Assembly (NCBI GenBank): GCA_965232515.1 | Contig: CBDDPY010000002.1 | Location: 7,268,417-7,332,416, forward strand | Length of the DNA: 64,000 nt | From: Alphaproteobacteria bacterium | GTDB lineage: Bacteria; Pseudomonadota; Alphaproteobacteria; GCA-2731375 | Direction: 5' to 3' | In this document: positions 338 to 28,548 of the stretch, one piece after another | Layout: every line of letters begins with the position of its first letter | Numbering within the stretch: the stretch's first letter is position 1 | Position numbers and translations under genes: made by a program | Notes under the pieces: model-generated | The model's database searches: none | The model's input: only the letters and a program-made list of their open reading frames with translations | Told to the model about the DNA's origin: nothing

Positions 338-1082
<745 letters not shown>

Positions 1083-4645: not shown

Positions 4646-4658
4646 GGCGGTCCGCATG

Positions 4659-5750: not shown

Positions 5751-6031
5751 GCCTCGACCACTCCCTTGTCCGCCAGGTCCTGCAGCATGGCCAGCACGTC
5801 CTTGGCGATGGTCTCGCGCGGCGCTTCGAAGGTCGCCACCAGGTCGTCGATGATGGCGGCGACGCTGTCGCCCTTGCAGCGCTGCAGGACCTCGACGGCG
5901 ATGTCGTCCGGCATCAGCACGCGTTCGGGCGCCAGGATGACCCAGCAGTCGCGCGCCTTGTCGAACCGCATCTTGCAGTGGCGCGGCAGCCGCGGCACGG
6001 AGTCTTCGCCGATGACCAGACGGTCGGCCAT
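5747..6031 (-). CDS. pqqD: PQQ peptide chaperone PqqD
   Basis: 94 aa, [17 protein letters not shown], located between pqqC and pqqE. Confidence 0.93.
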
Positions 6032-6034
6032 GGC

Positions 6035-7704: not shown

Positions 7705-7754
7705 CGCAACGTCCCGGACGTTGCGTTACCGGCCAGAGGCCGGAAATCGGAGTT

Positions 7755-7832
7755 TCAGTACTCCGCGCAGGCGTAGCAGTTGATCTCGCAGCCTACGGCG
7801 ATCTCGACGATCTTCGGTGTTGCCCACTTCAT
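7755..7832 (-). CDS. pqqA: PQQ precursor peptide PqqA (25 aa; not in the ORF track)
   Basis: Translated by hand: MKWATPKIVEIAVGCEINCYACAEY*, with ExxxY core (EINCY); RBS GGAGGGAG upstream; immediately upstream of pqqB. Confidence 0.95.
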   Translation of the reverse strand: MKWATPKIVEIAVGCEINCYACAEY

Positions 7833-8024
7833 CGCGACTCCCTCCAGTCCTTCGTTGGTTGCCCCCGGGCTTATGCAATCGCGCCGAACATTCCGTCAAA
7901 CCGCAATTTGCGCTCTACTGCACCCCTTGCGCCGACTACAGACGACACTTAGCCATGAAGAGCATAGTGACAAGGGATCGTCCGCTCAAGTCTCTATCGC
8001 CCCGTGATTGGGCATTCCGATCAC

Positions 8025-8057
8025 CCGTCACACACATGTCACATAGATGTCTGGCGG
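8025..8057. promoter_or_regulatory. Possible OmpR/PhoB-type tandem binding site in the pqqA/dehydrogenase divergent intergenic region
   Basis: GTCACA at 8027 and 8038 and GTCT at 8049, all with 11-bp spacing. Confidence 0.3.
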
Positions 8058-8362
8058 CGATTTGGCTTCGCGCTGGAAATGATCCGCCCCCCGCGCCATA
8101 CTGTTCCGGTACGGCAGAGGGCATTGCGTTGGGGGTCGGGGCGTCTGCACCGGTCGACGCAAATAGTACGTACAGGCATCGATCGGTATCAGGCCGTCCG
8201 GCAGTGTTTGTCCTGTCAGCACCCATGCGCGGTGTCCGCTGCGTTGTTGGCAGCAAATGCACGTCTGTAAAGGAGTTGCACTTAAGACCATAGAGACCAG
8301 TACGCAGCGTATGGAAGTCGCGCCTACTCAAAACCAAGCAATCAAATTGGGGAGGGAAGTCG

Positions 8363-10153
8363 ATGAAGCGTGTTCCTAAAAGCAGCGTAACCCGGCGGCA
8401 TATGTTGGCCGCCTCCGCGGTCGCGGCACTCGCCGCGGGCGCAATCTCCGTGCCGACCGCGCTGGCGGATTCTTCGGCCGACAACATCAAAAACTGTCCG
8501 CCGAGCGATTGGTGCGCCTATCACCGCAGCACGGACAAGGCTTGGCGGCATAGCCCGCTCGACCAGATCAATACCGGAAACGTGAAGGACCTGAAGCCGG
8601 CCTGGATGTTCATGCCGGGCAACGGCCAGATGGGCATGCAGGCGACGCCGTTGGTGGTCGGCGGCACCATGTATGTCTCGACGACGCCGTCCTCGGTCTG
8701 GGCGCTCGACGCCAAGACCGGCGCCCGCAAATGGGCGTTTCAGCCGGATATGGACGAGGCCGTGGTGTCGCGGTCGTTCTTCGCCCACACCCGTGGCCTG
8801 ACCGTCGGCGACGGCCGGGTCTATATGGGCACGGCGGACGGTCGCCTGATCGCGCTGAACGAAGATTCCGGCGAAGTGATCTGGGACAAGCAGCTGGTCG
8901 ACTCGCAGAAAGACACTGCCGGCTTCAGCGGCGCCGGCACGTTCGTCAGCTCCGACCTGCTGGTCATCGGCCAGAACGGCGGCGAGTATCCGGTCGAAGG
9001 GCGGATCTTCGGCGTCGATCCGAAAAGCGGCGATGTCAAGTGGACGTTCTATACGACCGGCCGCGGCGACGAGCGGGCGCTGGCCACCTGGGGCGGCGAT
9101 TCCTGGAAGTATGGCGGCGGCGGCTCCTGGCAGCCCGGCACCGTCGACTACGAGAACAACCAGATCCTGATCGGCACCGGTAATCCCAATCCGGACTATG
9201 ACTTCTGCGGCGCCGAATGCATGGACGCCAACGCCAAGGCACACCGGCCCGGCACCAACCTCTACACCTCGTCGACGATCGCGCTCGATCTCGATACCGG
9301 CAAGCTGAACTGGTACTTCCAGGAAGCGCCGAGCGATCCCTACGACTACGACTCGGCAGTCGGCGAATATGTGATGATCGAGGGCGAGGACGGCCGCAAG
9401 CTGGTGCTGCACCCCGGCAAGAACGGCTTCAACCACGTTCACGACCGCAAGACCGGTCAGCCGATCAACGTCTATCCCGCCCAGAAGTCGCAGAACTGGA
9501 CCACCGGCTTCAACCTCGAGACCGGCCAGTGGGAGAACATGCTCTGGCCGAAAGCCGGAGAGAAGACGTTGGTCTGCCCGGCGATCGACGGCGGCCATAG
9601 CTGGAACGCGGGCGCCTACAGCCCCGATACCGGGCTGCAATACCGCGTCGTCAACGAGTGGTGCATGTACCTCGTCGTGAACCCGGAGGAAGGTGGCACG
9701 GCCACGGCCGGCACCGAAACCCGCGTCACCGATCCTTTCGCGCAAGTCTTCATGGCGGCCGAATGGGAAGGCACCGATCCGCCCGGCGACACCACGCACG
9801 GTCGGCTCGTGGCGCGCGATCCGGTCTCCGGCGACATCGCCTGGGAGAAGCGGTACGACATCATTCCGCACTCCGCCCTGCTGTCGACCGGCGGCGGCCT
9901 TGTCTTCAACGGCACCTATGACGGGTTCCTGGAGGCGCTGGACGCCAAGACGGGCGACGTGCTGTGGCGCTTCAACAACGGCACCGGCCACAATGGCGGC
10001 ATCGTGTCGTACGAGGTTGACGGCAAGCAGTATGTCGCGGCGGCGGTTGGCCACGGCTCGTATGTGGGCCGGGCGTTGGCCGACCACTACCACAAGGACA
10101 AGCTGATTGGTTATCAGGAGAGCGCGGCGATCGTCGTGTTCGCGCTCGACTAG
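8363..10153 (+). CDS. PQQ-dependent dehydrogenase (methanol/ethanol-type beta-propeller), putatively lanthanide-dependent
   Basis: SPLDQINTGNV.DL..AW, QATPLV, repeated ALDAKTG...W propeller motifs, GGEYP, GTGNP, DPYDYD, GKNGF; RBS GGGAGGG; twin-Arg-like leader TRRHML. Confidence 0.92.
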   Translation: MKRVPKSSVTRRHMLAASAVAALAAGAISVPTALADSSADNIKNCPPSDWCAYHRSTDKAWRHSPLDQINTGNVKDLKPAWMFMPGNGQMGMQATPLVVGGTMYVSTTPSSVWALDAKTGARKWAFQPDMDEAVVSRSFFAHTRGLTVGDGRVYMGTADGRLIALNEDSGEVIWDKQLVDSQKDTAGFSGAGTFVSSDLLVIGQNGGEYPVEGRIFGVDPKSGDVKWTFYTTGRGDERALATWGGDSWKYGGGGSWQPGTVDYENNQILIGTGNPNPDYDFCGAECMDANAKAHRPGTNLYTSSTIALDLDTGKLNWYFQEAPSDPYDYDSAVGEYVMIEGEDGRKLVLHPGKNGFNHVHDRKTGQPINVYPAQKSQNWTTGFNLETGQWENMLWPKAGEKTLVCPAIDGGHSWNAGAYSPDTGLQYRVVNEWCMYLVVNPEEGGTATAGTETRVTDPFAQVFMAAEWEGTDPPGDTTHGRLVARDPVSGDIAWEKRYDIIPHSALLSTGGGLVFNGTYDGFLEALDAKTGDVLWRFNNGTGHNGGIVSYEVDGKQYVAAAVGHGSYVGRALADHYHKDKLIGYQESAAIVVFALD

Positions 10154-10166
10154 CTGACGTGAAGCC

Positions 10167-10204
10167 GGCCGGGGCAGGCGGCGTGTAGCCGTCCTGCGCC
10201 GGCC
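10167..10204 (+). terminator. GC-rich stem-loop after the dehydrogenase (mRNA stabiliser or partial terminator)
   Basis: GGCCGGGGCAGGCGGC-gtgta-GCCGTCCTGCGCCGGCC imperfect hairpin; no clear U-tract. Confidence 0.4.
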
Positions 10205-10244
10205 GAGCTGTCGTTGATCATTTGTCAGTGTGGGAGAAGTGTTC

Positions 10245-10670
10245 GTGACGTCGACAACGCGACGCCGCGGCTGGACATATGCCGCGGCCTTGATCATTGG
10301 TTTGCTTGTCGCGCCTGCTTGGCTGGCGGGCTCGGCGCAGGCCGGTGAAAGCTCCGCCTATCCGGACGTGAATCCGATGTCCGGCGACAAGGACGCCATC
10401 CACGAAGGCGGCAAGCTTTATTCGAAATGGTGCCGGCAGTGCCATGGCCGCAAGGCCGACGGCGTGTCGCAGCGGTTCGGAAAATACTCGGGCGATCTGC
10501 GCAAGTTCTGGCGCGGCTACCCCGAATTCGTCGTGATCGTGCTGAACGGCCGGCCGAAAAAGAAGATGCCGCCGTGGGGCGGCGTGCTGGACGAGGACGA
10601 GATCGCCCAGATCGCCGCTTATCTGGAAACGCTGGCGATCGAGGGTGCCAACTGGAAACGGATGAGGTGA
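10245..10670 (+). CDS. Monoheme c-type cytochrome, probable electron acceptor of the PQQ dehydrogenase
   Basis: Signal peptide, CRQCH heme motif, distal MPPW Met ligand; start chosen after GGAGAAG. Confidence 0.9.
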   Translation: MTSTTRRRGWTYAAALIIGLLVAPAWLAGSAQAGESSAYPDVNPMSGDKDAIHEGGKLYSKWCRQCHGRKADGVSQRFGKYSGDLRKFWRGYPEFVVIVLNGRPKKKMPPWGGVLDEDEIAQIAAYLETLAIEGANWKRMR

Positions 10671-10675
10671 CGGCA

Positions 10676-11068
10676 ATGCGAACGATAATCATGGCGCTCA
10701 TCGCGTTCCTGGCGGCCGGCGTCGCCAACGCGGCCGAACCCTATACGCTGGCGGAGGGGACCTGGGTCTGCCAGTCCGAAGAAGCCTATGACGACGCCAT
10801 CGCCGAGGTGAAGCAGCGCCAGGGCAAGAACCTGGGCGAGTTGCAGCGGCGATTGAAAGAGCAGGGCTACTGCACCTACATGGACGACGACGCGCTGGAG
10901 GACCTGATGGCGCCGTTCGTGCAGGTGCTGGAGGAGAACGGCGACAAGGTCAAGGTCACCTTCATCGTCGAGTACTACAAGCGCATCGCCATGCTGCACC
11001 GCAAGTTCGCGCGCATCCAGTACACGGGCTGGACCGAGAAAACCAATCTGCGGGACTATTATCGGTAA
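10676..11068 (+). CDS. Exported hypothetical protein (130 aa, two Cys)
   Basis: MRTIIMALIAFLAAGVANA signal peptide, GAGG RBS, high-GC3 codon usage. Confidence 0.75.
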   Translation: MRTIIMALIAFLAAGVANAAEPYTLAEGTWVCQSEEAYDDAIAEVKQRQGKNLGELQRRLKEQGYCTYMDDDALEDLMAPFVQVLEENGDKVKVTFIVEYYKRIAMLHRKFARIQYTGWTEKTNLRDYYR

Positions 11069-11098
11069 CGTTCCCATCCGCGTACCGGAGCAGCGCCG

Positions 11099-12913
11099 AT
11101 GACTTCAATTCGACGAACCCGATGGCTCACTGTTGCAGTCGGGTTGGCGTTGGCCATCGGCATGCGAGCGCAGGCGGCGACCGATGCCTGGATCGGCGAT
11201 CTGACGCCGATCTCCGCCGGCGACTGGAGCGACGACGCGGCGGCGCACCTCCTGGAGCGCGCCGGCTTCGGCGGCACGCCGAAAGAGATCCAGGCATTCG
11301 CCCGGCTGACGCCCGTCCAGGCGGTCGATCGTCTGGTGAACTTCGCCGCCGTCGAGAACGACCATCTGCCGCCGTTCGAACATTCCGGCGTGCACGATCC
11401 CGGTCTCGAGCCGTTCCCACCCAGCCGGCCGGCGACGACGCGGCTTGCGCGCGAGACCGGCGAGGCGCTGGGCGTGAAAGTGAAGCCGTCGGGCAACCGC
11501 CGCCTGCAGCCCGTCGTCAACCGCTTCTTCTATTGGCTGCGCGCCAGCCACCTCGAGACCAACCGGGTCGCCTATTGGTGGGCGAACCGCATGCTGGCGA
11601 CGCACCGGCCGCTGCAGGAGAAGATGGCGCTGTTCTGGCACGGCCATTTCGCCGTCAGCGAAACCAAGGTGCGCGACTATCGCAAGATGCTGCGGCAGCT
11701 CGAGCTGTTCCATCGTCTCGGCGCCGGCAACTTCCGCGATCTGATGATCGGCGTCGCTCAGGACCCGGGAATGCTGTCGTTCCTCGACGCCGGCGTGAAC
11801 ATCAAGGGCTCGCCGAACGAGAACTTCGCCCGCGAGATCATGGAGCTGTTCACCATGGGCGTCGGCAACTACGCCGAAGCCGACATCCGCGAGGCGGCGC
11901 GCGCCTTCACCGGCTGGAATTATGCCGATCTCGATTTCATCGTGAACGACGACCAGCACGATCGCGGCGACAAGGTCTTCCTGGGCGAGACCGGCGACTT
12001 CGACGGCGTCGAGATCATCGACATCATCCTGCGCCAGCCGGTGACGGCCGATTATCTCGCCGGCAAGATCTATCGATACTTCGTGCGCGAAGACCTGTCG
12101 CCGGAACTGCAAGCCAAGCTCGGCGACGTGCTGCGGGACAACGGCTACGAGATCGCGCCGCTGCTGCGCACGATATTCCTGTCGCGCGATTTCCACAGCC
12201 CGGCCTCGGTGGCGAGCCACATCAAGAGCCCGGTCGAGCTGTTGATCTCCACCTACCGCAAGCTGGAGCTCGACGTGGTGCCGGGCGTGCCGGACTTCAA
12301 CGAGGCCACGGCGGCGCTCGGTCAGCATCTGTTGCGGCCGCCGACCGTCGCTGGTTGGGCCCAGGGCCGAAGCTGGATCACGCCGGGGTTGCTGCTGGCG
12401 CGCGGCAATACGGCCTACGCCATCCTGTTTCCCGACATCAACTTCGTGCCGCACGACCGCTATCCGCGCGACCCGCTGATCCGGGCGGTGTCCGACAAGA
12501 TCGCCCGCGGTTACGACATCAGCACCGCCACCAAGCCGGACACCGGCGGCGAGATGGCGATGTCGAACGTGATGGCGGACCGGGACGAAGACTTCAATAC
12601 GCGCTATGGCAGCTACAAGGGCTGGCAGATGGCGGTACAGAAAGTGATCCCGATCGCGCGGCACACCGCTGATGTCGATCTGCGTGGCATGGTGCTGACG
12701 GCCGAGTTGCAAACGACGACAGAGGTGGTCAATGCGTTCCTGCGGCGCTTCCTGCGGGCGCCGGTCGAGCCGGCGGCGCGCGATGCCATGATCGCGTTCC
12801 TGGATGACGAGCTCGGCACGTCCGATATCGTCGCGGCGGAGAGCTATCTGGAAGAACCGCTGCGCAAGCTGCTGCACCTGATCATGAGCACGCCCGAGTA
12901 CCAGTTGGGCTAG
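11099..12913 (+). CDS. DUF1800 family protein
   Basis: AAHLLERAGFG, LQEKMALFWHGHF, PNENFAREIMELFTMG, REAARAFTGW, KSPVE, STPEYQL. Confidence 0.9.
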   Translation: MTSIRRTRWLTVAVGLALAIGMRAQAATDAWIGDLTPISAGDWSDDAAAHLLERAGFGGTPKEIQAFARLTPVQAVDRLVNFAAVENDHLPPFEHSGVHDPGLEPFPPSRPATTRLARETGEALGVKVKPSGNRRLQPVVNRFFYWLRASHLETNRVAYWWANRMLATHRPLQEKMALFWHGHFAVSETKVRDYRKMLRQLELFHRLGAGNFRDLMIGVAQDPGMLSFLDAGVNIKGSPNENFAREIMELFTMGVGNYAEADIREAARAFTGWNYADLDFIVNDDQHDRGDKVFLGETGDFDGVEIIDIILRQPVTADYLAGKIYRYFVREDLSPELQAKLGDVLRDNGYEIAPLLRTIFLSRDFHSPASVASHIKSPVELLISTYRKLELDVVPGVPDFNEATAALGQHLLRPPTVAGWAQGRSWITPGLLLARGNTAYAILFPDINFVPHDRYPRDPLIRAVSDKIARGYDISTATKPDTGGEMAMSNVMADRDEDFNTRYGSYKGWQMAVQKVIPIARHTADVDLRGMVLTAELQTTTEVVNAFLRRFLRAPVEPAARDAMIAFLDDELGTSDIVAAESYLEEPLRKLLHLIMSTPEYQLG

Positions 12914-12939
12914 GGTGAGAAGAGAGGCGGAGAACAGGC

Positions 12940-14145
12940 ATGACCGACAACAGGTTCGGGCGCCGACAGATCCTGAAAGCTGGTGGGGCGGGCGCCCTCG
13001 TGGCGCTGTGTCCGCCGGCAATCGCGCAAGCTCTGGCCGCCGTCGCGCATCCCAATCGCATCCTTGTCGTGCTGGAGCTATCGGGCGGCAACGACGGCCT
13101 GAACACGCTGGTGCCGTACGGCGACGACGTCTACTACCGGCACCGGCCGACGATCGGCATCAAGGCGCAGCATCTGAGAAAGATCGACGATCATTTCGGC
13201 TTCAGCGAGGGCATGGCCGGCTTCGAGCGGCTCTATAGGGACGGCCGGATGGCGGTCGTGCACGGCTGCGGCTACGCCGGTCCGTCGTTCTCGCACTTTA
13301 CATCGATGGCCTATTGGCACACGGCGGCGCCCAACAGCGGCGCGGCGCACGGCTGGATCGGGCGGCTCGCCGATGCCATGCAACCCGACGCGGCGCCGAA
13401 CTTCATCGTCAACGTCGACGCGGTCGAGTCGCTGGCGGTGCGCAGCCGGCTGCATACGCCCGTCGTGTTCGACGAGCCGGACGCCTTTGCCCGCGACGGT
13501 TTTTTCGCCGAGCGCGATGTCTTCAACCGGCTGGTCGGCGACGCCAAGACCGGCAATGCCGGCCAACGCTATCTCCGCGCCGTTGCGCAAAGCGCGCGCG
13601 ATGCCTCGCTCTTGGTGCGTGAGGCCTGGGCAGATTACCGTTCGCCGGTCGACTACGGTCTGGTGCCGGTCGACCTGCCGAAGATCGCCGCGCTGATCGC
13701 GGCCGACCTGCCGACGCGGCTCTACTACACCTCGTTCCGCAACAACGCCTTCGACACGCATGTGCATCAGCCGAACCTGCACGCGCGACTGCTGACCTAT
13801 GCATCCGATGCCGTTGCCGGCTTCATGCAGGACATGGAACGCATCGGCCGGGCCGACGATGTGGTCATGCTGGTGTTTTCCGAGTTCGGGCGGCGGGTGC
13901 CGGAGAACACCAATCTCGGCACCGATCACGGCACGGCCAACCTGATGTTCGTCGTCGGCAAGCCGGTGAAGGGCGGCCATTACGGCACGCCGTCCAGCCT
14001 GACCGAGCTCGACGACGGCGACAACCTGATCTTCACGACCGACTTCCGGCGGGTCTACGCCAGCGTGATCGAAGGCTGGCTCGGCTATCCCGACGCCGCC
14101 GATATCCTGAACGGCCGCTTCGACACGCTGCCCATGTTCGCGTGA
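12940..14145 (+). CDS. DUF1501 family protein with Tat signal
   Basis: GRRQILK leader, LSGGNDGLNT.VP, SHF, FDTH, FSEFGRR..EN...GTDHG, DFRRVYA. Confidence 0.9.
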   Translation: MTDNRFGRRQILKAGGAGALVALCPPAIAQALAAVAHPNRILVVLELSGGNDGLNTLVPYGDDVYYRHRPTIGIKAQHLRKIDDHFGFSEGMAGFERLYRDGRMAVVHGCGYAGPSFSHFTSMAYWHTAAPNSGAAHGWIGRLADAMQPDAAPNFIVNVDAVESLAVRSRLHTPVVFDEPDAFARDGFFAERDVFNRLVGDAKTGNAGQRYLRAVAQSARDASLLVREAWADYRSPVDYGLVPVDLPKIAALIAADLPTRLYYTSFRNNAFDTHVHQPNLHARLLTYASDAVAGFMQDMERIGRADDVVMLVFSEFGRRVPENTNLGTDHGTANLMFVVGKPVKGGHYGTPSSLTELDDGDNLIFTTDFRRVYASVIEGWLGYPDAADILNGRFDTLPMFA

Positions 14146-14555
14146 TGCGGCGGGCGTTCGCCGGCCTGGTAGGGTTGACGCTGGCGGGACTGCCGTCCGC
14201 GTTTGCCGGCGATAAGACCATTCAGGGCGTGATCTCCGTCCGGCAGGATCTGGCGAGGCATCTCGGGCCGGACCATCGCCTCGCCATCAAAATCTACCAT
14301 CCCGGCGACGGCATCGAGCTCGACACCAAGTACCAGATCCTGCCGACCTTCAAGCTACCGCTCGAATTTCGGATCGGGCCCGCCATCGACATGAGCGGCC
14401 GGACCAAATGGTCGGCTTATGTGGTCGAGGTGTTCACGGACACCGACGGCGACCTGCTGTCGGTCGGTCCGGGTGAATTGCTGGCGAGAACGGCGGAACC
14501 GGTACCCCTGGGCACGGTCGACCTCGGGATCGAACTGAATACCTTGCGCGACTGA
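14142..14555 (+). CDS. Exported hypothetical protein, Ig-like (resembles the CcmI/CycH C-terminal or YbaY domain)
   Basis: Signal peptide, IQGVISV, LPLEFRIG, DTDGD...GPGEL; start overlaps the DUF1501 stop. Confidence 0.65.
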   Translation: MMRRAFAGLVGLTLAGLPSAFAGDKTIQGVISVRQDLARHLGPDHRLAIKIYHPGDGIELDTKYQILPTFKLPLEFRIGPAIDMSGRTKWSAYVVEVFTDTDGDLLSVGPGELLARTAEPVPLGTVDLGIELNTLRD

Positions 14556-14561
14556 CGGGCG

Positions 14562-15878
14562 TCAGACGCCGGATGTCGGGCGGCTGTAGGTGCAGGCGGC
14601 GCCGAAATCCGGACCGTCGACATCGATGAAGCCGTAAGCAACGGCCTCGGGATCGCGGGCCGGCTGGGCCCGGCGCAGAAGAGCCGCTTTCAACTGCGGC
14701 GCCCACCAGTTGGGATGTTTCGCCAGCAGGCAGGCGGCCAGCGCCGTGATCCGCGCCGTCGCGTAGCTCGACCCCGAAGCCCGGTCGATCCGGCCGAAGA
14801 AATCGATAACCGGAATGTTCTCGCCCGGCGTCATCACGTCGACGATGCCGGCGCCCCAGTTGGCGGCGCTGGCCAGCGCGCCATCGGCGGTGGCCGAGGT
14901 GACCGTCACCATGTTGTCGAGCGGCAACGCGGCCGGATAGACCGGATTGCGGCGGATATCGCGGCCGTCGTTGCCGGCGGCGACGATGAACAGCATCTCC
15001 GGGTGCTGCCGGGCGATGCGATAGAACGGCAACCATTCCTCGCGGTCGTCGCTGACCAGCGAAAGGTTGACCAGGCGCACGCCGTTCGTCGCGGCGTCCT
15101 GGATCAGCGCCCCCATGCGACGCATGTCGGGACGGGGATAGCGGTAAGGCAACAGCCGCACGACCGGCGCTTCGGCCAGCAGCACGCTCGCCGTCTTGGT
15201 GCCGTGCCGGGCCGGGAAGAAGGCCGAACGCACGGGGTGCGCGTCGAACGGCCGTTCGTCCAGGTCCCAGTAATCGTAACCCAGCACCCGGTTGTCGGCG
15301 CCGCGCGCCAGGCGGCGGCGGATCTGCGGCAGCAGATAGTTGATCCCGGTATCGACCAGCGCGACGGGCACGCCGCCCGGATCGCGGCCTACAGGCACCG
15401 GCGGGTTCAGCGCCTCGCGCGCGCCCGTCGGCTCCAGTCCATTGTCGAGGTCCTCGATCCAGCCGGGGTTTCCGTCGTCGTCGTAGTGCAGCCGCCGGGC
15501 GGTTTCGATGTGGCAGTCCGCATCCGTCATGGCGAGCAGGGTCGGCCGGTCGCCGTCGGCGCTGTTGTATTGCGCGCTGACCCGGCGAAGCTGACCGTTT
15601 GCCGCCAGCCGTTCGACCGTCAGGGTGCCGCCGGGAACCTGGAAGCGACGCCGCCAGCCCATCATGCTCATGCGGACCTGCCGGCCCATGGGCCGGGCGT
15701 TCGGCAGGCGCCGCGACATGGCCTGCAATTGCGCGTGCGTGCGGACGTTGCAGGCCAGGCTGACGGCGGCGCGCAGCAGCGACGCCGCTTCGATATTGGC
15801 CTGCGCGGGATGGCTGGTGATCGTCATGGCGACGACCAGACCGGCGGCGAATGGCAGGATGTTCGATTTAAGCTTCAA
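14562..15878 (-). CDS. S8 (subtilisin-like) serine peptidase, exported; start uncertain
   Basis: Catalytic motifs VALVDTG, HGT and SGSSYAT, plus oxyanion AAGNDG. Confidence 0.85.
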   Translation of the reverse strand: MKLKSNILPFAAGLVVAMTITSHPAQANIEAASLLRAAVSLACNVRTHAQLQAMSRRLPNARPMGRQVRMSMMGWRRRFQVPGGTLTVERLAANGQLRRVSAQYNSADGDRPTLLAMTDADCHIETARRLHYDDDGNPGWIEDLDNGLEPTGAREALNPPVPVGRDPGGVPVALVDTGINYLLPQIRRRLARGADNRVLGYDYWDLDERPFDAHPVRSAFFPARHGTKTASVLLAEAPVVRLLPYRYPRPDMRRMGALIQDAATNGVRLVNLSLVSDDREEWLPFYRIARQHPEMLFIVAAGNDGRDIRRNPVYPAALPLDNMVTVTSATADGALASAANWGAGIVDVMTPGENIPVIDFFGRIDRASGSSYATARITALAACLLAKHPNWWAPQLKAALLRRAQPARDPEAVAYGFIDVDGPDFGAACTYSRPTSGV

Positions 15879-15948
15879 AATGCGACACGTTTCCGCGCGG
15901 TGCGCATGATCTGCTGGCGACAATGCCGCCGATCATTGCCGCCGATGG

Positions 15949-16782
15949 TTACCAAATCCTTTCCACCCGCGCATCCCGCATCCGGGCGTTCCGCCATTGC
16001 TGACGCTGGTTCCGGGCCGCCCGCGCCCGCTGACGCAGGATTTCGACCATGCGTTCGGCGTCTTCCGGGCTGATTTCCTGCGGCGTGGCGGCCTGTTGCG
16101 TCTGGACGTTGTTCTCGGTCTTGATGCTGTTGTTCGGCGCCTGCGAGGCTTCGCGGCCGGATGTGTCCTGCTGCTCGTCCTGTTCCGCGCCCGATTCGGC
16201 CGGGCGGTTGTACTGCGCTTCCTGATTGAAAGCCTGACCGATATTGGACGATGTCTTCTGATTGCGGGCGCGCGGGTTGGCCTGTGGCTGGACCTGCTGT
16301 CGCTCGATCTCGCGCAAGAGGCGCAGCGACATCTCGAGATTGTAGCGGGTGTCGGCGCGCTCGGGATCGAGCGCCAGGCTGCCGCGGTAGTAGGCCATTG
16401 CCGCGCGCGCCGGCGTCAATGCGTCCTGCAGCGTGTTCAACGCTTCCAGCGCTTGCTGATACTTCGCATTGCCGAGGTTGTAGCGCAACCGCGCCTCCAG
16501 CTCGGGCCCGGCCGTTTGCAGCGCCTTTTCATAGTGTGTCAGCGCCTCGGCATAGAGTTGACGCTGGTAATAGGCATCGCCCAGATCGAAATGGATGGTG
16601 GCGTCATCCGGCTGCAATCGCAGCGCCGCTGCGTATTTCTCGGTCGCGGTCGCATAGTCGCCGGCCGCATAAAACGCGTTGCCCGCCGCGACCAGGTCAT
16701 CGGCGGTCTCGTTGTTGGCGGCCAGAGCCGGGTTTGCCGCCAGCATCAGCAGCAATGAGAATGCATGGAGCCGAGATGTCAT
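15949..16782 (-). CDS. TPR protein with Gln-rich tail (BatC/MxaK-like)
   Basis: Signal peptide, GNAFY, YNLGNAKY, RYNLE TPR motifs, Q-rich linker, C-terminal W. Confidence 0.8.
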   Translation of the reverse strand: MTSRLHAFSLLLMLAANPALAANNETADDLVAAGNAFYAAGDYATATEKYAAALRLQPDDATIHFDLGDAYYQRQLYAEALTHYEKALQTAGPELEARLRYNLGNAKYQQALEALNTLQDALTPARAAMAYYRGSLALDPERADTRYNLEMSLRLLREIERQQVQPQANPRARNQKTSSNIGQAFNQEAQYNRPAESGAEQDEQQDTSGREASQAPNNSIKTENNVQTQQAATPQEISPEDAERMVEILRQRARAARNQRQQWRNARMRDARVERIW

Positions 16783-17801
16783 GGCTGGGCCTCTCGTCGG
16801 CCGCCGGCAGGCAGCAGCATGTCGGCGGCCAGCAGCAGGAGCGCGGCCAGCACGAACCATTGATAGCGGGCGATCGGCTGCTCGGAGCTGGCGGCGTCGA
16901 TGCGCCGGCGCGGCTTCTGGGCGATCTGCGTTCGGTAAAGCTTGGCGAGCGATCCCGTCTCGCCGCCGGCGGCCACATAGGCGCCGTCCGTCAGCTGCGT
17001 CAGATTGCGCAACATGTCTTCCTGCAGGCGCGATGTGACGACCGCATCCTGGTGCTGCAGCAAGCGCCTTTCGCCATCGTCGTCCGAGATCGGAATCGTG
17101 GCGCCGTCGACCGGATCTCCGATACCGACCGCGTAGATGCTGACGCCGCCGGCGGCCGCGGCCTTGGCCGCTTCCGTCGGCAGGGTGTCGTGGTCCTCGC
17201 CGTCGGTGACCAGGATGACGTCGGTGAAACCTTCGGCCGGCGCGCCGAAGCCGTGCAGGCTTTGCCGTAGCGCGGCGCCGATGGCCGTGCCCTGAAGCGT
17301 CACGGTGCCGGTGCCGACCAGGTCGAGCCGTTCGCGGAAGAAGTCGTAGTCGAGCGTCAGCGGGCAATGCAGGCTGGCGCGGCCGGCAAAGGCGATCAGG
17401 CCGAGCCGGTGGCCGCCGTCTTCTGAGACGGCCATGACCAGCTCATCGACCAGCGCTTTCGCGCGTTCGAGGCGGTTCGGCGCGGCATCCTCGGCCAGCA
17501 TGCTCAGTGAGACATCGAACACGACCAGCAGATCGCGTCCCTCCCGCGGCACGTCCTCGACGCCGCGCCCCCACTGCGGCTGCGTCAACGCGATGACGAG
17601 GAAGGCGACTGCCGCCAGCAGACAAGCCGCCTTCAACCATTGCCGCCGCCGATTCAGATCGACGACCAGACGCGCGGCCAGCGGCCTGCCGACGAGCGTT
17701 GCCAGCGCCGCGTGTTTGCGGCGAAAACCGTAGGCGTAGAGCGCCAGCAGCGCCGGCACGACGGCCAGCAGATAGATGAAATGAAAGGCCTCGAACTGCA
17801 T
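16779..17801 (-). CDS. batB: VWA domain membrane protein, BatB-like
   Basis: ALTQPQWG, MIDAS DVSLSM, PNRLERAK, CPLTLD, GTAIG, VTDGED. Confidence 0.8.
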   Translation of the reverse strand: MQFEAFHFIYLLAVVPALLALYAYGFRRKHAALATLVGRPLAARLVVDLNRRRQWLKAACLLAAVAFLVIALTQPQWGRGVEDVPREGRDLLVVFDVSLSMLAEDAAPNRLERAKALVDELVMAVSEDGGHRLGLIAFAGRASLHCPLTLDYDFFRERLDLVGTGTVTLQGTAIGAALRQSLHGFGAPAEGFTDVILVTDGEDHDTLPTEAAKAAAAGGVSIYAVGIGDPVDGATIPISDDDGERRLLQHQDAVVTSRLQEDMLRNLTQLTDGAYVAAGGETGSLAKLYRTQIAQKPRRRIDAASSEQPIARYQWFVLAALLLLAADMLLPAGGRREAQP

Positions 17802-17811
17802 GCCGTCGTAC

Positions 17812-18834
17812 CTATGGGACCGTTCTGAGACGCGTGTTGACCAGCGCGATCTCGAACAGCAGCAGGCCGAAGGCCGCCAGGACGAACACGGGAAAGCCCT
17901 CGACGTAACGCTGATAGTGATCGGCGACGTTGCGGGCCTTTTCCAGGCGGTCGATCTCGGCGTAGATCGCCCGCAGGGCGGCGCCGTCGGTGGCGCGGAA
18001 ATAGCGGCCGCCGGTCAGCTCGGCGATCTGCGTCAGCGTATGCTCGTCGATATAGACCTGGGTCTGGCGCAACTCGGTGCCGCCGCCGCGGGCGCGCACC
18101 GGCATCAGCGCGGTGCCGCGACTGCCGGCGCCAATGGTGTAGAGCTTGATGCCGAGCGCCTGGGCAATCTGGGCGGCCTGCAATGGCGCGGTGTCGCCGG
18201 CGTTGTTGCTGCCGTCGGTCAGCAGGATCAAAACCCGGCTCGACCCCGCGGCCCGGCGCAGCCGCTCGACGCCCATGACGATGGCGTCGCCGATCGCGGT
18301 GCCGTCCTCTTCCGGCAGCGGCACGATCGTGACCCGGTCGACCTGCGACAGCAGCGCCGTGTGATCGAGCGTGAGCGGGCTGAGCCCGTCGGCAAACCTA
18401 GCAAACGTCAGCAGCCCGATCAGGTCGCCGCCGCGGCCGGTCAGCGCATCGGCGTCGCCCTCGACGAAGTCGACGAAGGTCCGCTTCACCACTTCGAGCC
18501 GGTCGGTCTGGCGATTGTCCATGGTCAGGTCCAGCGCGCCCATGCTGCTGGAGATATCGACCGCCATGACGATGGCGATGCCCTCGGCGTGGACCTCGGT
18601 GGTTTCGAGTCCCCATTGCGGCCGCGCCAGCGCGATGACGCAGAGCGACAGCGCCAGCGCCCTGAACCAGGGCAGGCCGGCATGCAGCAGCGCCGTCGGC
18701 GTGCGCGCCAATTGCCGGAGGTCGCCCGTCGCCGAATAGCCGAGCGCCGCCGGCCGACGCCGGCGCGCGTGCAGATACAGCAGCACCGGCACCAGCAGGA
18801 GCAACAGCAGCGCCCAGGGCTCGGCCAGTCTCAT
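17812..18834 (-). CDS. batA: VWA domain membrane protein, BatA-like
   Basis: ALARPQ, DISSSM, DLIGLLTF, PLTLDH, GTAIGDA, LLTDGSNNAG, TGGRYFRA, IDRLE. Confidence 0.85.
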   Translation of the reverse strand: MRLAEPWALLLLLLVPVLLYLHARRRRPAALGYSATGDLRQLARTPTALLHAGLPWFRALALSLCVIALARPQWGLETTEVHAEGIAIVMAVDISSSMGALDLTMDNRQTDRLEVVKRTFVDFVEGDADALTGRGGDLIGLLTFARFADGLSPLTLDHTALLSQVDRVTIVPLPEEDGTAIGDAIVMGVERLRRAAGSSRVLILLTDGSNNAGDTAPLQAAQIAQALGIKLYTIGAGSRGTALMPVRARGGGTELRQTQVYIDEHTLTQIAELTGGRYFRATDGAALRAIYAEIDRLEKARNVADHYQRYVEGFPVFVLAAFGLLLFEIALVNTRLRTVP

Positions 18835-19790
18835 GGCGTTTCCGGTTGCATTGATGGCTGGACGGTCACGTTCCGATCCGCCGTCGCTTCGACGAACGCC
18901 ATCACCTCGCCGAGTGCGTGTCGCATATCCGGGCCTTGGGGCCGGTGCCGGCCGAACTTCACCCGATCGAAGTCCCGCAGCAGGATGCCGATCCGCTCGG
19001 ACCGTTGCGCCAGCGTCTCGCCGGCATGGCTCATGGCGGCGAGAGTCTCGTCGGTTGTCCGCCTTGGCGCCTCGAGGCCGAAACGCCAGAGCACGTAGCG
19101 CCGGAGGATATCCGACAAGCGCACATAGAAGCGGTCGACCTGCGCCTGGTCGTTCGGATCCAGCGCGCGCAGCGCCGCGAGCGCCAGCTCGTGCGCCGGC
19201 TGCGCCTGCTGCCGCGGCGTCCACCGTCGGCGCCAGAACCACAGGCCGGTCAGCGCCAACAGCAAAGCGGCGCCGGCCAGCCACCAGACCGGCGACAGCC
19301 GCATCGGTGTCGTCAGGGCGACGGGCGGCGCGACGTCACGCAGCGCGGTGATGGCGGCATCGGCCGGCACGAGCGTGATCACGTTCACTGGCACGGCCGT
19401 CGTCCGCAGCTCGCGCTGCCGCAGGCCGGCATCGCCTACCGTCTGCTGCACAACGGCGGTCAGCGGCGGGATCACCACTTCGCCCGCCTGTCGCGGCGCC
19501 AGCACATAGGCCTGCCGCCAAAGCTGCCGGCCGTCGTCCGTGGCGATGGGGGACGGCCGGTTCTCCGTGACGACCGAGAAGTGTTCCAGTTCGGCCGCGA
19601 CATCTGGAAACGCGACCAGCGCCGCCGCCGGGGCCATGACGGTCAGCGTCATGCGCAGACGCTCGGCGACGCCCAGCTCCTGCCGGTCGACGGACACGGT
19701 CAATTCGGCGTCCTGCGCCCAAACGACGGCCGGCCATATGAGCAGTAGAATGAGCCACAGCATCGACAAGGTTCCGCGACGACCGGTCAT
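18831..19790 (-). CDS. BatD-like / DUF4381-type membrane-anchored protein
   Basis: Signal peptide, Ig-like N-terminus, TM helix, FY..LSDILRRY, TTDE, DRVKF; position between DUF58 and VWA genes. Confidence 0.7.
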   Translation of the reverse strand: MTGRRGTLSMLWLILLLIWPAVVWAQDAELTVSVDRQELGVAERLRMTLTVMAPAAALVAFPDVAAELEHFSVVTENRPSPIATDDGRQLWRQAYVLAPRQAGEVVIPPLTAVVQQTVGDAGLRQRELRTTAVPVNVITLVPADAAITALRDVAPPVALTTPMRLSPVWWLAGAALLLALTGLWFWRRRWTPRQQAQPAHELALAALRALDPNDQAQVDRFYVRLSDILRRYVLWRFGLEAPRRTTDETLAAMSHAGETLAQRSERIGILLRDFDRVKFGRHRPQGPDMRHALGEVMAFVEATADRNVTVQPSMQPETP

Positions 19791-19798
19791 GACGGCGC

Positions 19799-20686
19799 CT
19801 ACCGGCCTTCCCGCAGGCGCCGCTCGCGCTGATGGAAGAACTGCATCAGCGGGTGGATGTAAGGGGTATCGGTGCGCACATCGATCATGTCGAGGCCCAG
19901 CGAGCGGAAGAAATGCCGCCGCTGCATGGCCGTGGCGCGCCGGCGTTCGGCATAGCGGCGGCGAACGGCGGCGCTGCCGGTGTCGAGCAGCACATCGGCG
20001 CCGGTCTCCAGATCCCGCAAGGTCACCAGGCCGGCATTCGGCAGCTCCCATTCCCGCGGATCGCTGATGCAGATCGGAATGACGTCATGGCGCTGACGCG
20101 CGATCCTGAGCGGTCGCTCGTAGTCTGATGTCAAAAAGTCCGAGATCAGAAAGCTGACCGACCGGCGTTTGCTGACCATGTCGAGATATTCCAGCGCCAG
20201 CCCGGCGTCGGTGCCGGTGTGCTGCGGCTCGAAATAGAGCAGCTCGCGGATCAGCCGCAGCGCGCGGTTCCGCCCTTTGCGCGGCGGCACGAATTTCTCG
20301 ATCCGATCGGTGAACAGGATCAGCCCGACCTTGTCGTTATTGGCGATCGCGCTGAGCGCCAGCAGCGCGCAGAGTTCGACGGCGACCTCATTCTTCGCCC
20401 GCTCTGCGCTGCCGAACCGCCCGGATGCGCTGAGATCGACCAGCAGCATGACGGTCAGCTCGCGTTCCTCGACATGCTTCTTCACGAACGGCTGGCCCAG
20501 GCGCGCGGTCACGTTCCAGTCGATCGTGCGCACGTCGTCGCCGGGGCTGTACTCGCGGACCTCGGCGAATTCGATGCCGCGGCCCTTGAAGACGCTGTGG
20601 TACTCGCCGGCGAACATCCCGTCGACCAGGCGGCGCGTGCGGATATGGATCTGGCGGACCTGCTTGAAGACATCTGCCGGAAGCAT
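19799..20686 (-). CDS. DUF58 family protein (MxaS-like)
   Basis: GEYHSVFKGRGIEFAEVREY.PGDDVRTIDWNVTAR, EERE, ISDF. Confidence 0.92.
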   Translation of the reverse strand: MLPADVFKQVRQIHIRTRRLVDGMFAGEYHSVFKGRGIEFAEVREYSPGDDVRTIDWNVTARLGQPFVKKHVEERELTVMLLVDLSASGRFGSAERAKNEVAVELCALLALSAIANNDKVGLILFTDRIEKFVPPRKGRNRALRLIRELLYFEPQHTGTDAGLALEYLDMVSKRRSVSFLISDFLTSDYERPLRIARQRHDVIPICISDPREWELPNAGLVTLRDLETGADVLLDTGSAAVRRRYAERRRATAMQRRHFFRSLGLDMIDVRTDTPYIHPLMQFFHQRERRLREGR

Positions 20687-20704
20687 GGCCGGGCGCGCCT
20701 CCGG

Positions 20705-21718
20705 CTAGGGCACGGGCAGGCCGTCGAAGATCTGCTGCAGAAGATCTTCGGCCGTCATGTCGGCCGCCTCCGCCTCGTAGGTAATCAGCACGCGGTGACG
20801 CAGCACGTCCATGCCGATCGACTTCACATCCTGCGGCGTGACGTAGCCGCGCCCGCAAATGAAGGCATGCGCCTTCGCCGCCAGCGCCAGATAGATCGAC
20901 GCCCGGGGCGAAGCGCCGAAATCGACATAGGCGCCGATGTCGAGGCCGTGCGCCGCCGGTTCGCGCGTCGCATGCACGACATCGACAATGTAGTTCTTGA
21001 TCTTGTCGTCGAGATAGATGCTGTCGACGGTTTGCCGCGCCGCCAGGATATCGGCCGTCGTCGTGACCGGGTCGGCCTTTTCCTGCGGCTGCGTCGTCGC
21101 CATGCGTTCCAGGATCTGCAATTCCTCGTCGCGGCTCGGATAAGAGATCTTCAGCTTCAGCATGAAGCGGTCGAGTTGGGCTTCGGGCAGCGGATAGGTG
21201 CCCTCGTGTTCCAGCGGGTTCTGCGTCGCCAGCACCAGGAAGGGGTGCGGCAGCGGGAAGCTCTCCTCGCCGATCGTCACCTGACCTTCCTGCATGGCTT
21301 CCAGCAGCGCGCTCTGCACTTTCGCGGGCGCCCGGTTGATCTCGTCGGCCAGCACGATGTTGGCGAAAATCGGTCCCTTCCGGACGCGGAACTCGCCCGA
21401 CTGCGGCTGATAGATCAGCGTGCCGATCAGGTCGGCCGGCAGCAGGTCGGGGGTGAACTGCACGCGCTGGAAATCGGCTTGCAGCGCTTCCGACATTGCC
21501 GTCACGGCACGCGTCTTGGCCAGGCCCGGCACGCCCTCCAGCAGCACGTGGCCGTTCGCCAGCAGGCCGACCAGCAGGCGCTCCAGCAGGTAGTGCTGGC
21601 CGATGATGACCCGGCCCATCGCCGCCATCATGTCCTCGACGAACCGGCTTTGCCGTTCGACCTCCGCGTCGATCTCCTGCACGTCGCGCGGCGTCAACGG
21701 AAGTATCTCGCGCAACAA
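20705..21718 (-). CDS. moxR: MoxR family AAA+ ATPase (start uncertain)
   Basis: GHVLLEGVPGLAKT, RVQFTPDLLPAD, LADEINRAPAKVQSALLEAMQE, ATQNP, YPLPEAQLDRF, GASPRA. Confidence 0.95.
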   Translation of the reverse strand: MLREILPLTPRDVQEIDAEVERQSRFVEDMMAAMGRVIIGQHYLLERLLVGLLANGHVLLEGVPGLAKTRAVTAMSEALQADFQRVQFTPDLLPADLIGTLIYQPQSGEFRVRKGPIFANIVLADEINRAPAKVQSALLEAMQEGQVTIGEESFPLPHPFLVLATQNPLEHEGTYPLPEAQLDRFMLKLKISYPSRDEELQILERMATTQPQEKADPVTTTADILAARQTVDSIYLDDKIKNYIVDVVHATREPAAHGLDIGAYVDFGASPRASIYLALAAKAHAFICGRGYVTPQDVKSIGMDVLRHRVLITYEAEAADMTAEDLLQQIFDGLPVP

Positions 21719-22089
21719 ACCGGCGACGGCTGACGGAGGCCTGTTGTGTCCAGGGTCAACACGTGCCGGTCGTCAAAAACTGTGGTTGCGCATGCGACAG
21801 CCGCCATCGGGAGATAAAGACCGGCCGAACGCCGATACATGGCCTGTCCATGATGTGCGTCAATTTTGACACGACGCTGGGCCGCAGACCACCACCTTGC
21901 AATGGAACCGGATGCCGGAGTCATTCGCTTTAGCGTCCCCAAGTAGCCGATGTGAGCGTTGCGAAAAAGTGGCCGTTTTGTGGCAGCGCTCACACCTGGC
22001 CCGCCGGATTGATCCCACATTATGACAAGCGGCCCGAGTGTATTGGTCGGGTTGGCGGACTTTGAAACGGCAAATGAGGGCAATTCGAT

Positions 22090-22926
22090 ATGATTGACCG
22101 ACTACGTCACCCGGATGAGGGCAAGTATTTCAAGCTGGCGGTCGTCGCCACGACACCGCTGCTGCTGATCGGTCTGGTGCTCGTCGCGGCGAGCATGGGC
22201 GGCCTGCTTCTGGCGGTCGCGCTGGTGCTGCCCATGTTGTGGCTGTCCATCAAGATGCTGGAGGCGCACTTCAAGGCCAATCTCGTCAAGGTCTCCGACC
22301 TGAACTTCCCCGAGGTCAAGGCGATCATCGACGAGGCGCGCGAGAAGTTGGACTATGAGCCCGACGTCGACGCTTATGTCAGGAGCGGCGACGCCAACAT
22401 GTTCCTTTACAAGTTCTTCCGGACCAAGATGCTTGTCATCAACTCCGAGTTCATCGATGCGGCATCGCGCGACGAGCTGGTCTGGCTGGTCGGCCGCTTC
22501 ATCGGCTCGTTGAAGGCCAAGCACGACCGGTTGACAGTGCTGTCGGCCTTGATCGGGATCTCCGAGAAGCTGGGCTTCCTGAACCTACTGCTGTATCCGT
22601 ACGAGCGGACCGTGGTTCATAGCGCCGACCAGATGGGCCTGTATCTGAGTGGCGATGTGAAAGCCGCGCTGACGGCGCTTAACCGCATGATCGTGGGCAA
22701 GGACCTGCACCGGCATGTCACGATCGAGGGTCTGCTGATGCAGAAGCGCGAGATCGACGGCCAGTTTCTGCCGAGCCTCGTGCGGCTGTTCTCGACGCAT
22801 CCGCACATGGTCGATCGGCATGCCAACATGCTGCGGTTTGCCGCCGAGCATATGCCGGAGGCGCGCGCCGCCTACGATGCCGGCGTTACGACGAAACCGA
22901 AGCTGGTGTTCAAGGCCGCGGCCTGA
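22090..22926 (+). CDS. M48/HtpX-like membrane protein lacking zinc ligands
   Basis: Two N-terminal TM helices, FPEV, ANMF, C-terminal STHP; HExxH position reads RFIGS. Confidence 0.7.
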   Translation: MIDRLRHPDEGKYFKLAVVATTPLLLIGLVLVAASMGGLLLAVALVLPMLWLSIKMLEAHFKANLVKVSDLNFPEVKAIIDEAREKLDYEPDVDAYVRSGDANMFLYKFFRTKMLVINSEFIDAASRDELVWLVGRFIGSLKAKHDRLTVLSALIGISEKLGFLNLLLYPYERTVVHSADQMGLYLSGDVKAALTALNRMIVGKDLHRHVTIEGLLMQKREIDGQFLPSLVRLFSTHPHMVDRHANMLRFAAEHMPEARAAYDAGVTTKPKLVFKAAA

Positions 22927-22948
22927 TCCCAGCGCGCTTTCCCGCCTT

Positions 22949-22984
22949 GATGCCGGACGGTCCGCCGTCCGGCATCGCCTGTTT
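22949..22984 (+). terminator. Probable intrinsic terminator
   Basis: Perfect 12-bp stem GATGCCGGACGG-tccg-CCGTCCGGCATC followed by GCCTGTTT. Confidence 0.6.
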
Positions 22985-23055
22985 GCCCGACCGCTCTATC
23001 AGGATATCGTAATATCAGAGGGTTCGCGGCGTCGCCGCGGGGGCAGTGGGGAACA

Positions 23056-25101: not shown

Positions 25102-25111
25102 GGCGACGACG

Positions 25112-26836: not shown

Positions 26837-26918
26837 CCGGCAACCGGGTTTAAGTTCAATCGTTTCATAAACGGCCGGCTGCAACGCCGGCTACCGTCAG
26901 CAAAATGGGGAGTGTGAC

Positions 26919-27932: not shown

Positions 27933-28029
27933 GCCTGACCTTGTCGCTGAAAGCCGGTTCCGGCCCGGCGTCCACCAGCACGCGGTGTGCGGTGGACGTC
28001 GAGCCGGACGGCCGACCGAGTATCTGACA

Positions 28030-28536: not shown

Positions 28537-28548
28537 GCGGGCCACGCG

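Follow-up and report, generated by a model that had tools for sequence, protein, structure and literature searches.

The window analysed here is a stretch of 64,000 nucleotides from an alphaproteobacterial genome (assembly GCA_965232515.1, contig CBDDPY010000002.1), and our subject is a pyrroloquinoline quinone (PQQ)-dependent dehydrogenase that it encodes, together with the accessory genes facing it. Genes were called from the listing of open reading frames (ORFs) combined with Pfam and NCBIfam scans of the window proteins (Table 1). On the plus strand, the dehydrogenase gene is followed by genes for a cytochrome c, a small exported protein, a DUF1800 protein, a DUF1501 protein and an exported beta-sandwich protein, hereafter p137. 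A second run on the minus strand, hereafter the helper operon, reads from a MoxR-class ATPase through DUF58, a BatD/DUF4381 fusion, two von Willebrand factor A (VWA) proteins and a tetratricopeptide repeat (TPR) protein to an S8 peptidase, with 4-bp overlaps between several of its genes. The two runs converge, leaving a gap of 6 bp between their stop codons at 14555 and 14562. An earlier note made from the sequence alone had described this gene content, the tight spacing and the 6-bp gap, and the ORF map and both family scans agree with it on all three.

Table 1. Genes of the locus in window coordinates, with the lone pqqE genes found in related loci (each in the coordinates of its own locus)
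Feature	Position	Strand	Evidence or remark
PQQ-dependent dehydrogenase, 596 residues, signal peptide	8363-10153	+	PF01011, 234 bits
Class I cytochrome c	10230-10670	+	PF13442; CxxCH in translation
Exported small protein, 130 residues	10676-11068	+	no Pfam or NCBIfam match
DUF1800 protein	11099-12913	+	PF08811, 366 bits, above gathering score
DUF1501 protein	12940-14145	+	PF07394, 88 bits, above gathering score; twin-arginine leader RRQILK
p137, exported beta-sandwich protein, 137 residues	14142-14555	+	no Pfam or NCBIfam match
S8 peptidase, subtilisin-like, final gene of helper operon	14562-15923	-	PF00082
TPR protein, exported, BatC-like and MxaK-like	15949-16782	-	TPR Pfam families; NF047507 (BatC) 53 bits, below cut-off
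VWA protein, membrane, BatB-like and MxaL-like	16779-17801	-	Pfam VWA; NCBIfam BatB
VWA protein, membrane, BatA-like, weakly MxaC-like	17812-18834	-	PF07584, 30 bits, and VWA; NF047508, 141 bits, below cut-off
BatD and DUF4381 fusion	18831-19790	-	PF13584, 29 bits; PF14316, 36 bits
DUF58 (VWA-like) protein	19799-20686	-	PF01882, 277 bits
MoxR-class AAA+ ATPase (AAA_3), first gene of helper operon	20705-21718	-	PF07726, 216 bits
pqqA	7755-7832	-	from ORF
pqqB/C/D/E	4659-7704	-	Pfam
NMT1/permease/ATPase system	2147-4783		beyond the pqq genes
ABC-2 system	238-1895		beyond the pqq genes
Lone pqqE, L008	12771-13841	opposite	65% identical to window PqqE
Lone pqqE, L038	3463-4533	opposite	65% identical to window PqqE
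Lone pqqE, L059	1804-2874	opposite	65% identical to window PqqE

The dehydrogenase scores 412 bits against TIGR03075, the model of the methanol/ethanol family, under the curated cut-off of 480, which justifies the word "atypical" used for it in the earlier note. Its nearest solved structures are those of PedH (6zcv, E 2e-76; 6zcw, E 4e-75), and quinohaemoprotein alcohol dehydrogenases are also among them. In a HMMER alignment, the metal ligands E208 and N274, the catalytic D328 and the lanthanide-type D330 fall on the corresponding PedH positions. An Asp two residues past the catalytic one is a mark of lanthanide enzymes, and the title of preprint 10.1101/2020.02.25.964783 calls this extra Asp essential. 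Also typical of the methanol/ethanol family is a vicinal Cys-Cys disulfide ring over the PQQ; the PedH pair aligns to S138-F139 in the window enzyme. A 12-residue clade-specific insert follows the metal-binding Asn loop (region of residues 278-294, window positions 9200-9220) and contains C282 and C286. When the window protein was aligned with 64 of the 81 related hits described below, each of at least 520 residues, E208, N274, D328, D330, W256, K353, C282 and C286 proved invariant in 65/65 sequences, all of which have S or T at 138 and F or V at 139. The CxxxC insert may stand in for the missing Cys-Cys disulfide. By its residues the metal site appears to be of the lanthanide type, the metal preference being a prediction only. 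Two more cysteines, C45 and C51, are conserved as a pair near the mature N-terminus. Tat export of the dehydrogenase (TRRHML in the window) was considered and rejected, the twin arginine not being conserved in 32 orthologous N-termini.

Of the candidates scored in a database search, 649 proteins reached E <= 1e-100. The 120 top-ranking of these 649, each standing for a cluster at 90% identity, share 70-97% identity with the window enzyme and carry generic names only, and our literature searches found no paper whose title or abstract deals with this dehydrogenase clade or its gene context. These sequences point to a large, environmentally widespread, mostly metagenomic or uncultured clade of PQQ dehydrogenases, unnamed and undescribed as a group, which is defined here. 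Since it pairs a lanthanide-type site with a missing disulfide, it would widen the sequence rules by which lanthanide enzymes are called in metagenomes. The window genome itself encodes seven PQQ dehydrogenases, i.e. the window enzyme and six paralogues at 29-33% identity, and three AAA_3 MoxR genes.

The gene context was followed in 81 related loci, 25 from species-representative genomes and 56 from metagenomes, whose dehydrogenases are 66-82% identical to that of the window. Presence of each gene was scored by tblastn of the window proteins, and collapsing the loci at 97% dehydrogenase identity gave 50 non-redundant lineages. A cytochrome c gene follows the dehydrogenase in 72/81 loci; eight of the nine others end within 210 bp downstream, and L010 lacks the gene despite a flank of 2.8 kb. 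With 29.6 bits against the PedF model (cut-off 122) and 25.4 against MoxG (cut-off 147.8), the window cytochrome is a generic class I cytochrome c, and presumably the electron acceptor of the dehydrogenase. The small protein is present in 64/81 loci, and a 42-row alignment shows a GWT motif and two Cys that never vary. The protein is predicted to form a small beta-barrel with a helical insert (pLDDT 86). Foldseek comparison of this model with the PDB returned nothing at E <= 0.001, a wider structure search gave SH3b-like matches only, at Z <= 5.6, which is the noise range of the tool, and an atlas match to SH3_3 at 0.86 lies below the 0.9 level and is a lead only. More distant dehydrogenase relatives (41-44% identity), carried on Skermanella and Rhodococcus plasmids, are accompanied in the same third position by a XoxJ-type binding protein; we therefore suspect, by analogy, that the small protein has assumed the part of a chaperone or subunit. 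Dehydrogenase, cytochrome c and small SH3-like protein are the conserved core of the module.

Two observations were made on the plasmid-borne relatives. On Skermanella rosea plasmid pSR-3 (L091), a 3.8-kb S8 peptidase gene stands divergently upstream of the set formed by a 41%-identical dehydrogenase, a cytochrome c and a binding protein, and its product is 29% identical to the window S8 peptidase. No MoxR gene was found near the hit on a Methylobacterium aquaticum plasmid (H16), a record without annotation.

Analysis of hydrophobicity detected no membrane segment in MoxR and DUF58, and three hydrophobic segments in each of the two VWA proteins. The BatD/DUF4381 fusion consists of a signal peptide, a BatD-like domain, a membrane segment and the DUF4381 domain. 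N-terminal leaders are present on the TPR protein, the S8 peptidase, p137, the small protein, the cytochrome and the dehydrogenase; for S8, TPR and p137 they were read from the N-terminal sequence, no segment reaching the threshold used. This predicted topology fits a cytoplasmic motor coupled across the membrane to periplasmic parts. The Asp/His/Ser triad and the oxyanion Asn of the S8 peptidase are conserved wherever the nine aligned rows reach (two of these are fragments), and the protein has a conserved N-terminal region of about 180 residues. Its gene is found in 9/14 lineages, window included, in which the end of the operon is visible. p137 occurs in 26/81 loci, corresponding to 21/50 lineages; its alignment has 20 rows, and its model (pLDDT 90) predicts a beta-sandwich. 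The best structure match is the pilotin AspS (5wec; E 8e-5, template modelling score 0.52-0.61). Atlas matches to Ig_CycH (0.88) and YscW (0.84) are below the 0.9 level and serve as leads only.

The position of the helper operon could be judged in 22 informative lineages, i.e. 11 that have it beside the dehydrogenase module and 11 that lack it there despite at least 8 kb of downstream sequence; the other 28/50 are too short. The operon thus adjoins the module in 11/22. Its arrangement is convergent as in the window in L004, L006, L008, L014 and L019, also convergent, though with p137 shifted upstream, in L007, and divergent, upstream of the dehydrogenase, in L011 and L040; in L038, L048 and L053 the S8 gene alone is seen before the contig ends. 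Lineages without an adjoining full operon fall into those with p137 (L003, L009, L012, L013 and L043) and those without it (L021, L023, L024, L025, L071 and L072, the Rokubacteria type).

A displaced operon was found elsewhere in the genome in all three cases checked in which it is not, or not wholly, adjacent, with MoxR orthologues at 67-78% identity and operon neighbours in each. In L012, L013, L015 and L043 the operon is split, and a full-length BatD/DUF4381 gene alone stays convergent to p137. In the one split genome looked at, that of L012, MoxR (78% identical), DUF58, VWA, VWA and TPR genes lie on another contig (L103), where nothing stands between the DUF58 gene and the first VWA gene, so that exactly the BatD/DUF4381 gene is missing. 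The displaced operon of the L009 genome is complete, S8 included (MoxR 78%), and that of the L003 genome has a MoxR at 67%. The latter ends with a second BatD/DUF4381-like gene (L105:5007-6209) in the position that S8 holds in the window. The best MoxR proteins of two Rokubacteria genomes are paralogues at 44-46% identity.

In 40 relatives of the window genome (24 of the same family, the same-genus genome being only 81% complete), no dehydrogenase orthologue was found at E <= 1e-100, and the window MoxR clade was likewise not found, the best MoxR being 51% identical. An even phylum-level sample of 400 genomes did not yield the MoxR clade either; its best match reaches 57%, and all seven hits belong to one genus. 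In a MoxR tree of 23 selected sequences, which is not a census, nine linked and three unlinked copies from dehydrogenase genomes form one clade of 12 (SH-aLRT 93). This clade is sister to the Parabacteroides Bat MoxR and separate from paralogues of the same genomes, including the two others of the window genome. The dehydrogenase tree was built from the window, 44/50 lineages and two outgroups from plasmids, the other six lineages being short fragments. All p137-bearing and all operon-linked loci fall there in one clade of 33 rows (SH-aLRT 98), and the basal lineages are without both. A p137 profile matched in 3/3 proteobacterial genomes with the MoxR clade and in 0/2 Rokubacteria genomes without it; p137 marks the branch of the dehydrogenase clade that also owns the MoxR operon.

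According to these trees, one recruitment followed by long retention would be enough to explain the linkage pattern. The link between the dehydrogenase module and the MoxR-VWA-TPR-S8 genes that the earlier note had pointed out goes beyond chance, given the adjacent cases, the displaced operons, the failure to find the MoxR clade in the 40 and the 400 genomes, and the parallel with MxaRSACKL described below. The same note had called the module "self-contained", with a loading machine of its own, and this did not hold for the clade as a whole: basal lineages carry dehydrogenase, cytochrome and small protein without such an operon. Dehydrogenase, cytochrome and small protein make up the unit, to which one branch has added p137 and a Bat/Mxa-type operon.

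For comparison, a genuine mxa cluster (L125, in genome G364) was located through the MxaI family PF02315, which is over its cut-off in 8/401 phylum genomes and gave 0 hits in a class-level sample of 301 genomes and no match in the window genome. The cluster reads MxaF (PQQ beta-propeller), MxaJ (solute-binding protein), MxaG (cytochrome c), MxaI (small subunit of methanol dehydrogenase), MxaR (AAA_3), MxaS (DUF58), MxaA (no family match), MxaC (VWA), MxaK (no family match), MxaL (VWA) and MxaD (Polyketide_cyc2). By BLASTP, the window MoxR matches MxaR (31%, E 9e-40), DUF58 matches MxaS (31%, E 8e-14), the BatB-like VWA protein matches MxaL (29%, E 4e-5), and the TPR protein matches MxaK (37% over 70 residues, E 3e-7). 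The BatA-like VWA protein matches MxaC weakly (24%, E 0.07), and the BatD/DUF4381 fusion gives short collinear matches to MxaA that are not significant (E 0.09-0.9), its gene holding the position of mxaA in the mxa operon. Five of the six Mxa accessory proteins thus appear to have distant counterparts in the window, one of them weak, and the helper operon looks distantly homologous to MxaRSACKL, with little change in gene order. According to PMC12276312, the incorporation of Ca2+ into methanol dehydrogenase requires every one of MxaR, S, A, C, K and L. The client of that system is the MxaFI heterotetramer.

The window and mxa clusters share a PQQ beta-propeller dehydrogenase, a dedicated c-type cytochrome and a set of MoxR, DUF58, membrane protein and two VWA proteins. 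However, the accessory proteins are only 24-37% identical, and the helper operon stands on the opposite strand or elsewhere in the genome rather than in one operon with the dehydrogenase. The window cluster is also without MxaI, an MxaJ-type binding protein and MxaD, adds p137, the S8 peptidase and the BatD/DUF4381 fusion, and its dehydrogenase carries the lanthanide-type Asp but no Cys-Cys pair. Our comparisons give good support to an Mxa-like coupling of the operon to the dehydrogenase module.

The extra Asp, the cytochrome gene directly downstream and PedH as the closest structure liken the window system to XoxF/XoxG/XoxJ and to PedH/ExaF. It differs from both in a dehydrogenase below the TIGR03075 cut-off, in the absence of the vicinal disulfide, in the CxxxC insert and in the associated MoxR operon, and from Xox also in having the 130-residue SH3-like protein in place of a XoxJ-type binding protein. 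We know of no MoxR operon at xox and ped loci.

Much closer is the Bat operon of Parabacteroides (L107: moxR-DUF58-x-batA-batB-batC-batD-batE), whose MoxR, at 57% identity, is the nearest outside the clade and whose first five genes stand in the same order. A BatA N-terminal domain, a BatB-like VWA, a BatC-like TPR and a BatD domain were all detected in the window proteins; the NCBIfam models for BatA, BatB and BatC, which are specific to Leptospira, match below their cut-offs. In contrast to Bat, the window operon encodes its BatD domain ahead of the VWA genes, as a fusion with DUF4381, has an S8 peptidase gene in the position of batD and batE, and is linked to a defined candidate client. As a rough control, six annotated Bat-like operons on plasmids were picked by hand, for annotation and taxonomic spread, from 40 listed of 413 matching records. 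Five of the six have no PQQ dehydrogenase within 10 kb, Paracoccus yeei being the exception. In three of them (L108, L118 and L119) an arylsulfatase gene lies directly upstream of MoxR, with a gene for a formylglycine-generating enzyme nearby, which suggests that Bat-like machines may serve exported sulfatases too.

The window genome contains a second cluster of related type (L089; G000:C2:1214000-1233000), in which MoxR, DUF58, DUF4381, VWA, VWA, TPR, a 441-residue protein, a Rieske protein and a PQQ dehydrogenase are encoded on one strand. Its dehydrogenase scores 564 bits with TIGR03075, above the cut-off, and shares 33% identity with the window enzyme. Paracoccus yeei plasmid pYEE2 (L108) carries a cluster of the same architecture, and the dehydrogenases of L089 and L108 share 51% identity. 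As in the window, a Bat-like MoxR-DUF58-DUF4381-VWA-VWA(-TPR/BatD) operon adjoins a PQQ dehydrogenase; but this dehydrogenase belongs to another clade, its neighbour is a Rieske protein and not a cytochrome c, all genes share one strand, and the MoxR is only 48% identical to that of the window. Three dehydrogenase families, i.e. the window clade, Mxa and the Rieske-associated one, accompany a machine of this kind. A gene for an SRPBCC protein (the MxaD-like fold family) was noted beside the L089 cluster.

The DUF1800 and DUF1501 genes behave differently from the rest of the plus-strand run. Both are found in only 1/81 loci and 1/50 other lineages, namely L032, where they occupy the same junction between the small protein and p137 as in the window; its dehydrogenase is 77-78% identical to that of the window and is not its sister on the dehydrogenase tree. 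In L008, L038 and L059, a full-length pqqE gene takes their place on the opposite strand, and partial pqqE matches occur at the junction in L036 and L039, so that this junction is a variable cargo site. PqqB and PqqC gave no tblastn match in any of the 81 related loci, and hence none beside these lone pqqE genes. The adjacency to pqqABCDE that the earlier note had stressed holds in this genome, on the minus strand, but not as a conserved feature. Contigs from RNA-seq libraries (coded runs X4, X10 and X15) match the region at 90-99% likeness, those of X4 spanning 30/30 bins of positions 7600-22000. One contig (8131-11755) bridges dehydrogenase, cytochrome and small protein and extends into DUF1800; two others bridge the DUF1800/DUF1501 (12009-13347) and DUF1501/p137 (13613-14302) junctions. 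As such contigs prove neither transcription nor single transcripts, we take them only as a sign that the same gene order is kept in near relatives. The two DUF genes appear to be inserted cargo outside the conserved machinery; a role of their products as substrate-supplying hydrolases is possible. Neither family has a sequence relative among solved structures.

Taken together, we favour the explanation that the locus is a horizontally spread periplasmic quinoprotein module whose helper machine inserts the active-site metal, with a probability of roughly 55% for the whole. The dehydrogenase, with its CxxxC insert next to the metal loop, would pass electrons to its own small c-type cytochrome, and the small SH3-like protein would take the place of XoxJ or MxaJ. 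The proteobacterial branch, which includes the window, would have recruited p137 and a membrane-spanning machine of the Bat/Mxa type, made of cytoplasmic MoxR and DUF58, two membrane VWA proteins, the BatD/DUF4381 fusion, a periplasmic TPR protein and usually the S8 peptidase. By analogy with MxaRSACKL, this machine would spend ATP on the delivery of Ca2+ or a lanthanide to the exported apo-dehydrogenase, or on its insertion there, with the BatD/DUF4381 protein and p137 as the interface on the client side. The roles of the small proteins and of the peptidase are those that we infer from these comparisons. That the helper operon is functionally coupled to the dehydrogenase module is likely. The narrower proposal that it loads the active-site metal, which follows the Mxa analogy, has in our opinion slightly less than an even chance.

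Several points count against this explanation. All linked loci fall in one dehydrogenase clade, so the lineages are not independent trials and a single origin is enough for their linkage. Basal lineages, Rokubacteria among them, have dehydrogenase, cytochrome and small protein with no p137 and a best MoxR at 44-46%, which means that the enzyme family can mature without the operon. In L003 and L009 the operon is unlinked, and its convergent orientation implies that the two runs are not co-transcribed. The match to MxaC is weak and that to MxaA not significant, and the window MoxR, at 31% identity to MxaR, is much closer to the Bacteroidetes Bat MoxR (57%). PMC3557215 describes the Bat operon itself as having no established function. 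Many of these points would equally suit a Bat-like operon that works on its own in the envelope or in stress, a role proposed for the Bacteroides aerotolerance genes, and that came to be linked by co-transfer on a mobile island. The Bacteroidetes Bat MoxR proteins are the nearest to the window MoxR (55-57%) and sister to it in the tree, the operon is missing from basal lineages and unlinked in two others, a single origin suffices, and five of the six sampled plasmid operons have no PQQ dehydrogenase nearby. We nonetheless regard such an independent system as unlikely, since the linkage outlasts three different rearrangements and a split that leaves one operon gene at p137, the operon is kept in all three checked genomes where it has moved away, and its MoxR clade was not found in 440 sampled genomes without the dehydrogenase. 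The Mxa and Rieske-associated dehydrogenases moreover show the same association.

A machine that matures another exported client, be it the cytochrome c, p137 or, in this genome, the sulfatase-like DUF1501 protein, is in our view quite improbable. The arylsulfatase gene directly upstream of MoxR in three of the six plasmid operons does imply that Bat-like machines accompany other exported enzymes, and it is p137, not the dehydrogenase, that strictly co-occurs with the operon; p137 also resembles pilotins, its Ig_CycH match of 0.88 being a lead only. Against this, DUF1501 is present in only one of the 50 other lineages and so cannot be a general client, the cytochrome is also found in lineages without the operon, and the sole experimentally defined client of such a machine in this protein family is a PQQ dehydrogenase (PMC12276312). 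The earlier note had instead made the DUF1800 and DUF1501 proteins integral partners of the dehydrogenase, in substrate processing or assembly. This is favoured by the insertion recurring at that junction in L032, a lineage not sister to the window on the tree, and by the contigs of near relatives that bridge the three junctions from the small protein to p137. However, the gene-neighbourhood comparison found the pair missing from 49/50 other lineages, the junction carries pqqE instead in three lineages and partially in two more, and two papers in the library searched name both families, neither of them in title or abstract. Core partnership of the DUF pair is thus very improbable.

The explanation by a metal-inserting helper machine would carry the Mxa principle, metal insertion with the aid of helper proteins, over to enzymes other than methanol dehydrogenase, and would give a testable client to the Bat-type operon, a gene set common in bacteria yet functionally unexplained. 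Taken further, Bat-type MoxR-DUF58-VWA operons could be general ATP-driven loaders of Ca2+ or lanthanides into exported enzymes, with the client set by the neighbouring gene. The present locus would then be the first candidate for a Ca2+/lanthanide-insertion system of a non-Mxa quinoprotein, with p137 and BatD/DUF4381 as client adaptors and the CxxxC motif replacing the Cys-Cys ring. We offer this generalization as speculative and, on present evidence, rather doubtful.

Scans of the region for promoters and terminators gave counts no higher than the shuffled expectation, and scans for RNA features found no tRNA and no Rfam family. The PqqB protein is 88% identical in the same-genus genome, where it lies on a very short contig, and HydB has no close match in 24 relatives (0/24). 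Downstream of the module (22090-33692), the window encodes an M48 peptidase, two hydantoinase/oxoprolinase A(+B) sets and a TRAP-type DctP binding protein. The four-contig assembly, which holds the pqq genes and the whole module together, is a practical starting point for heterologous reconstitution.

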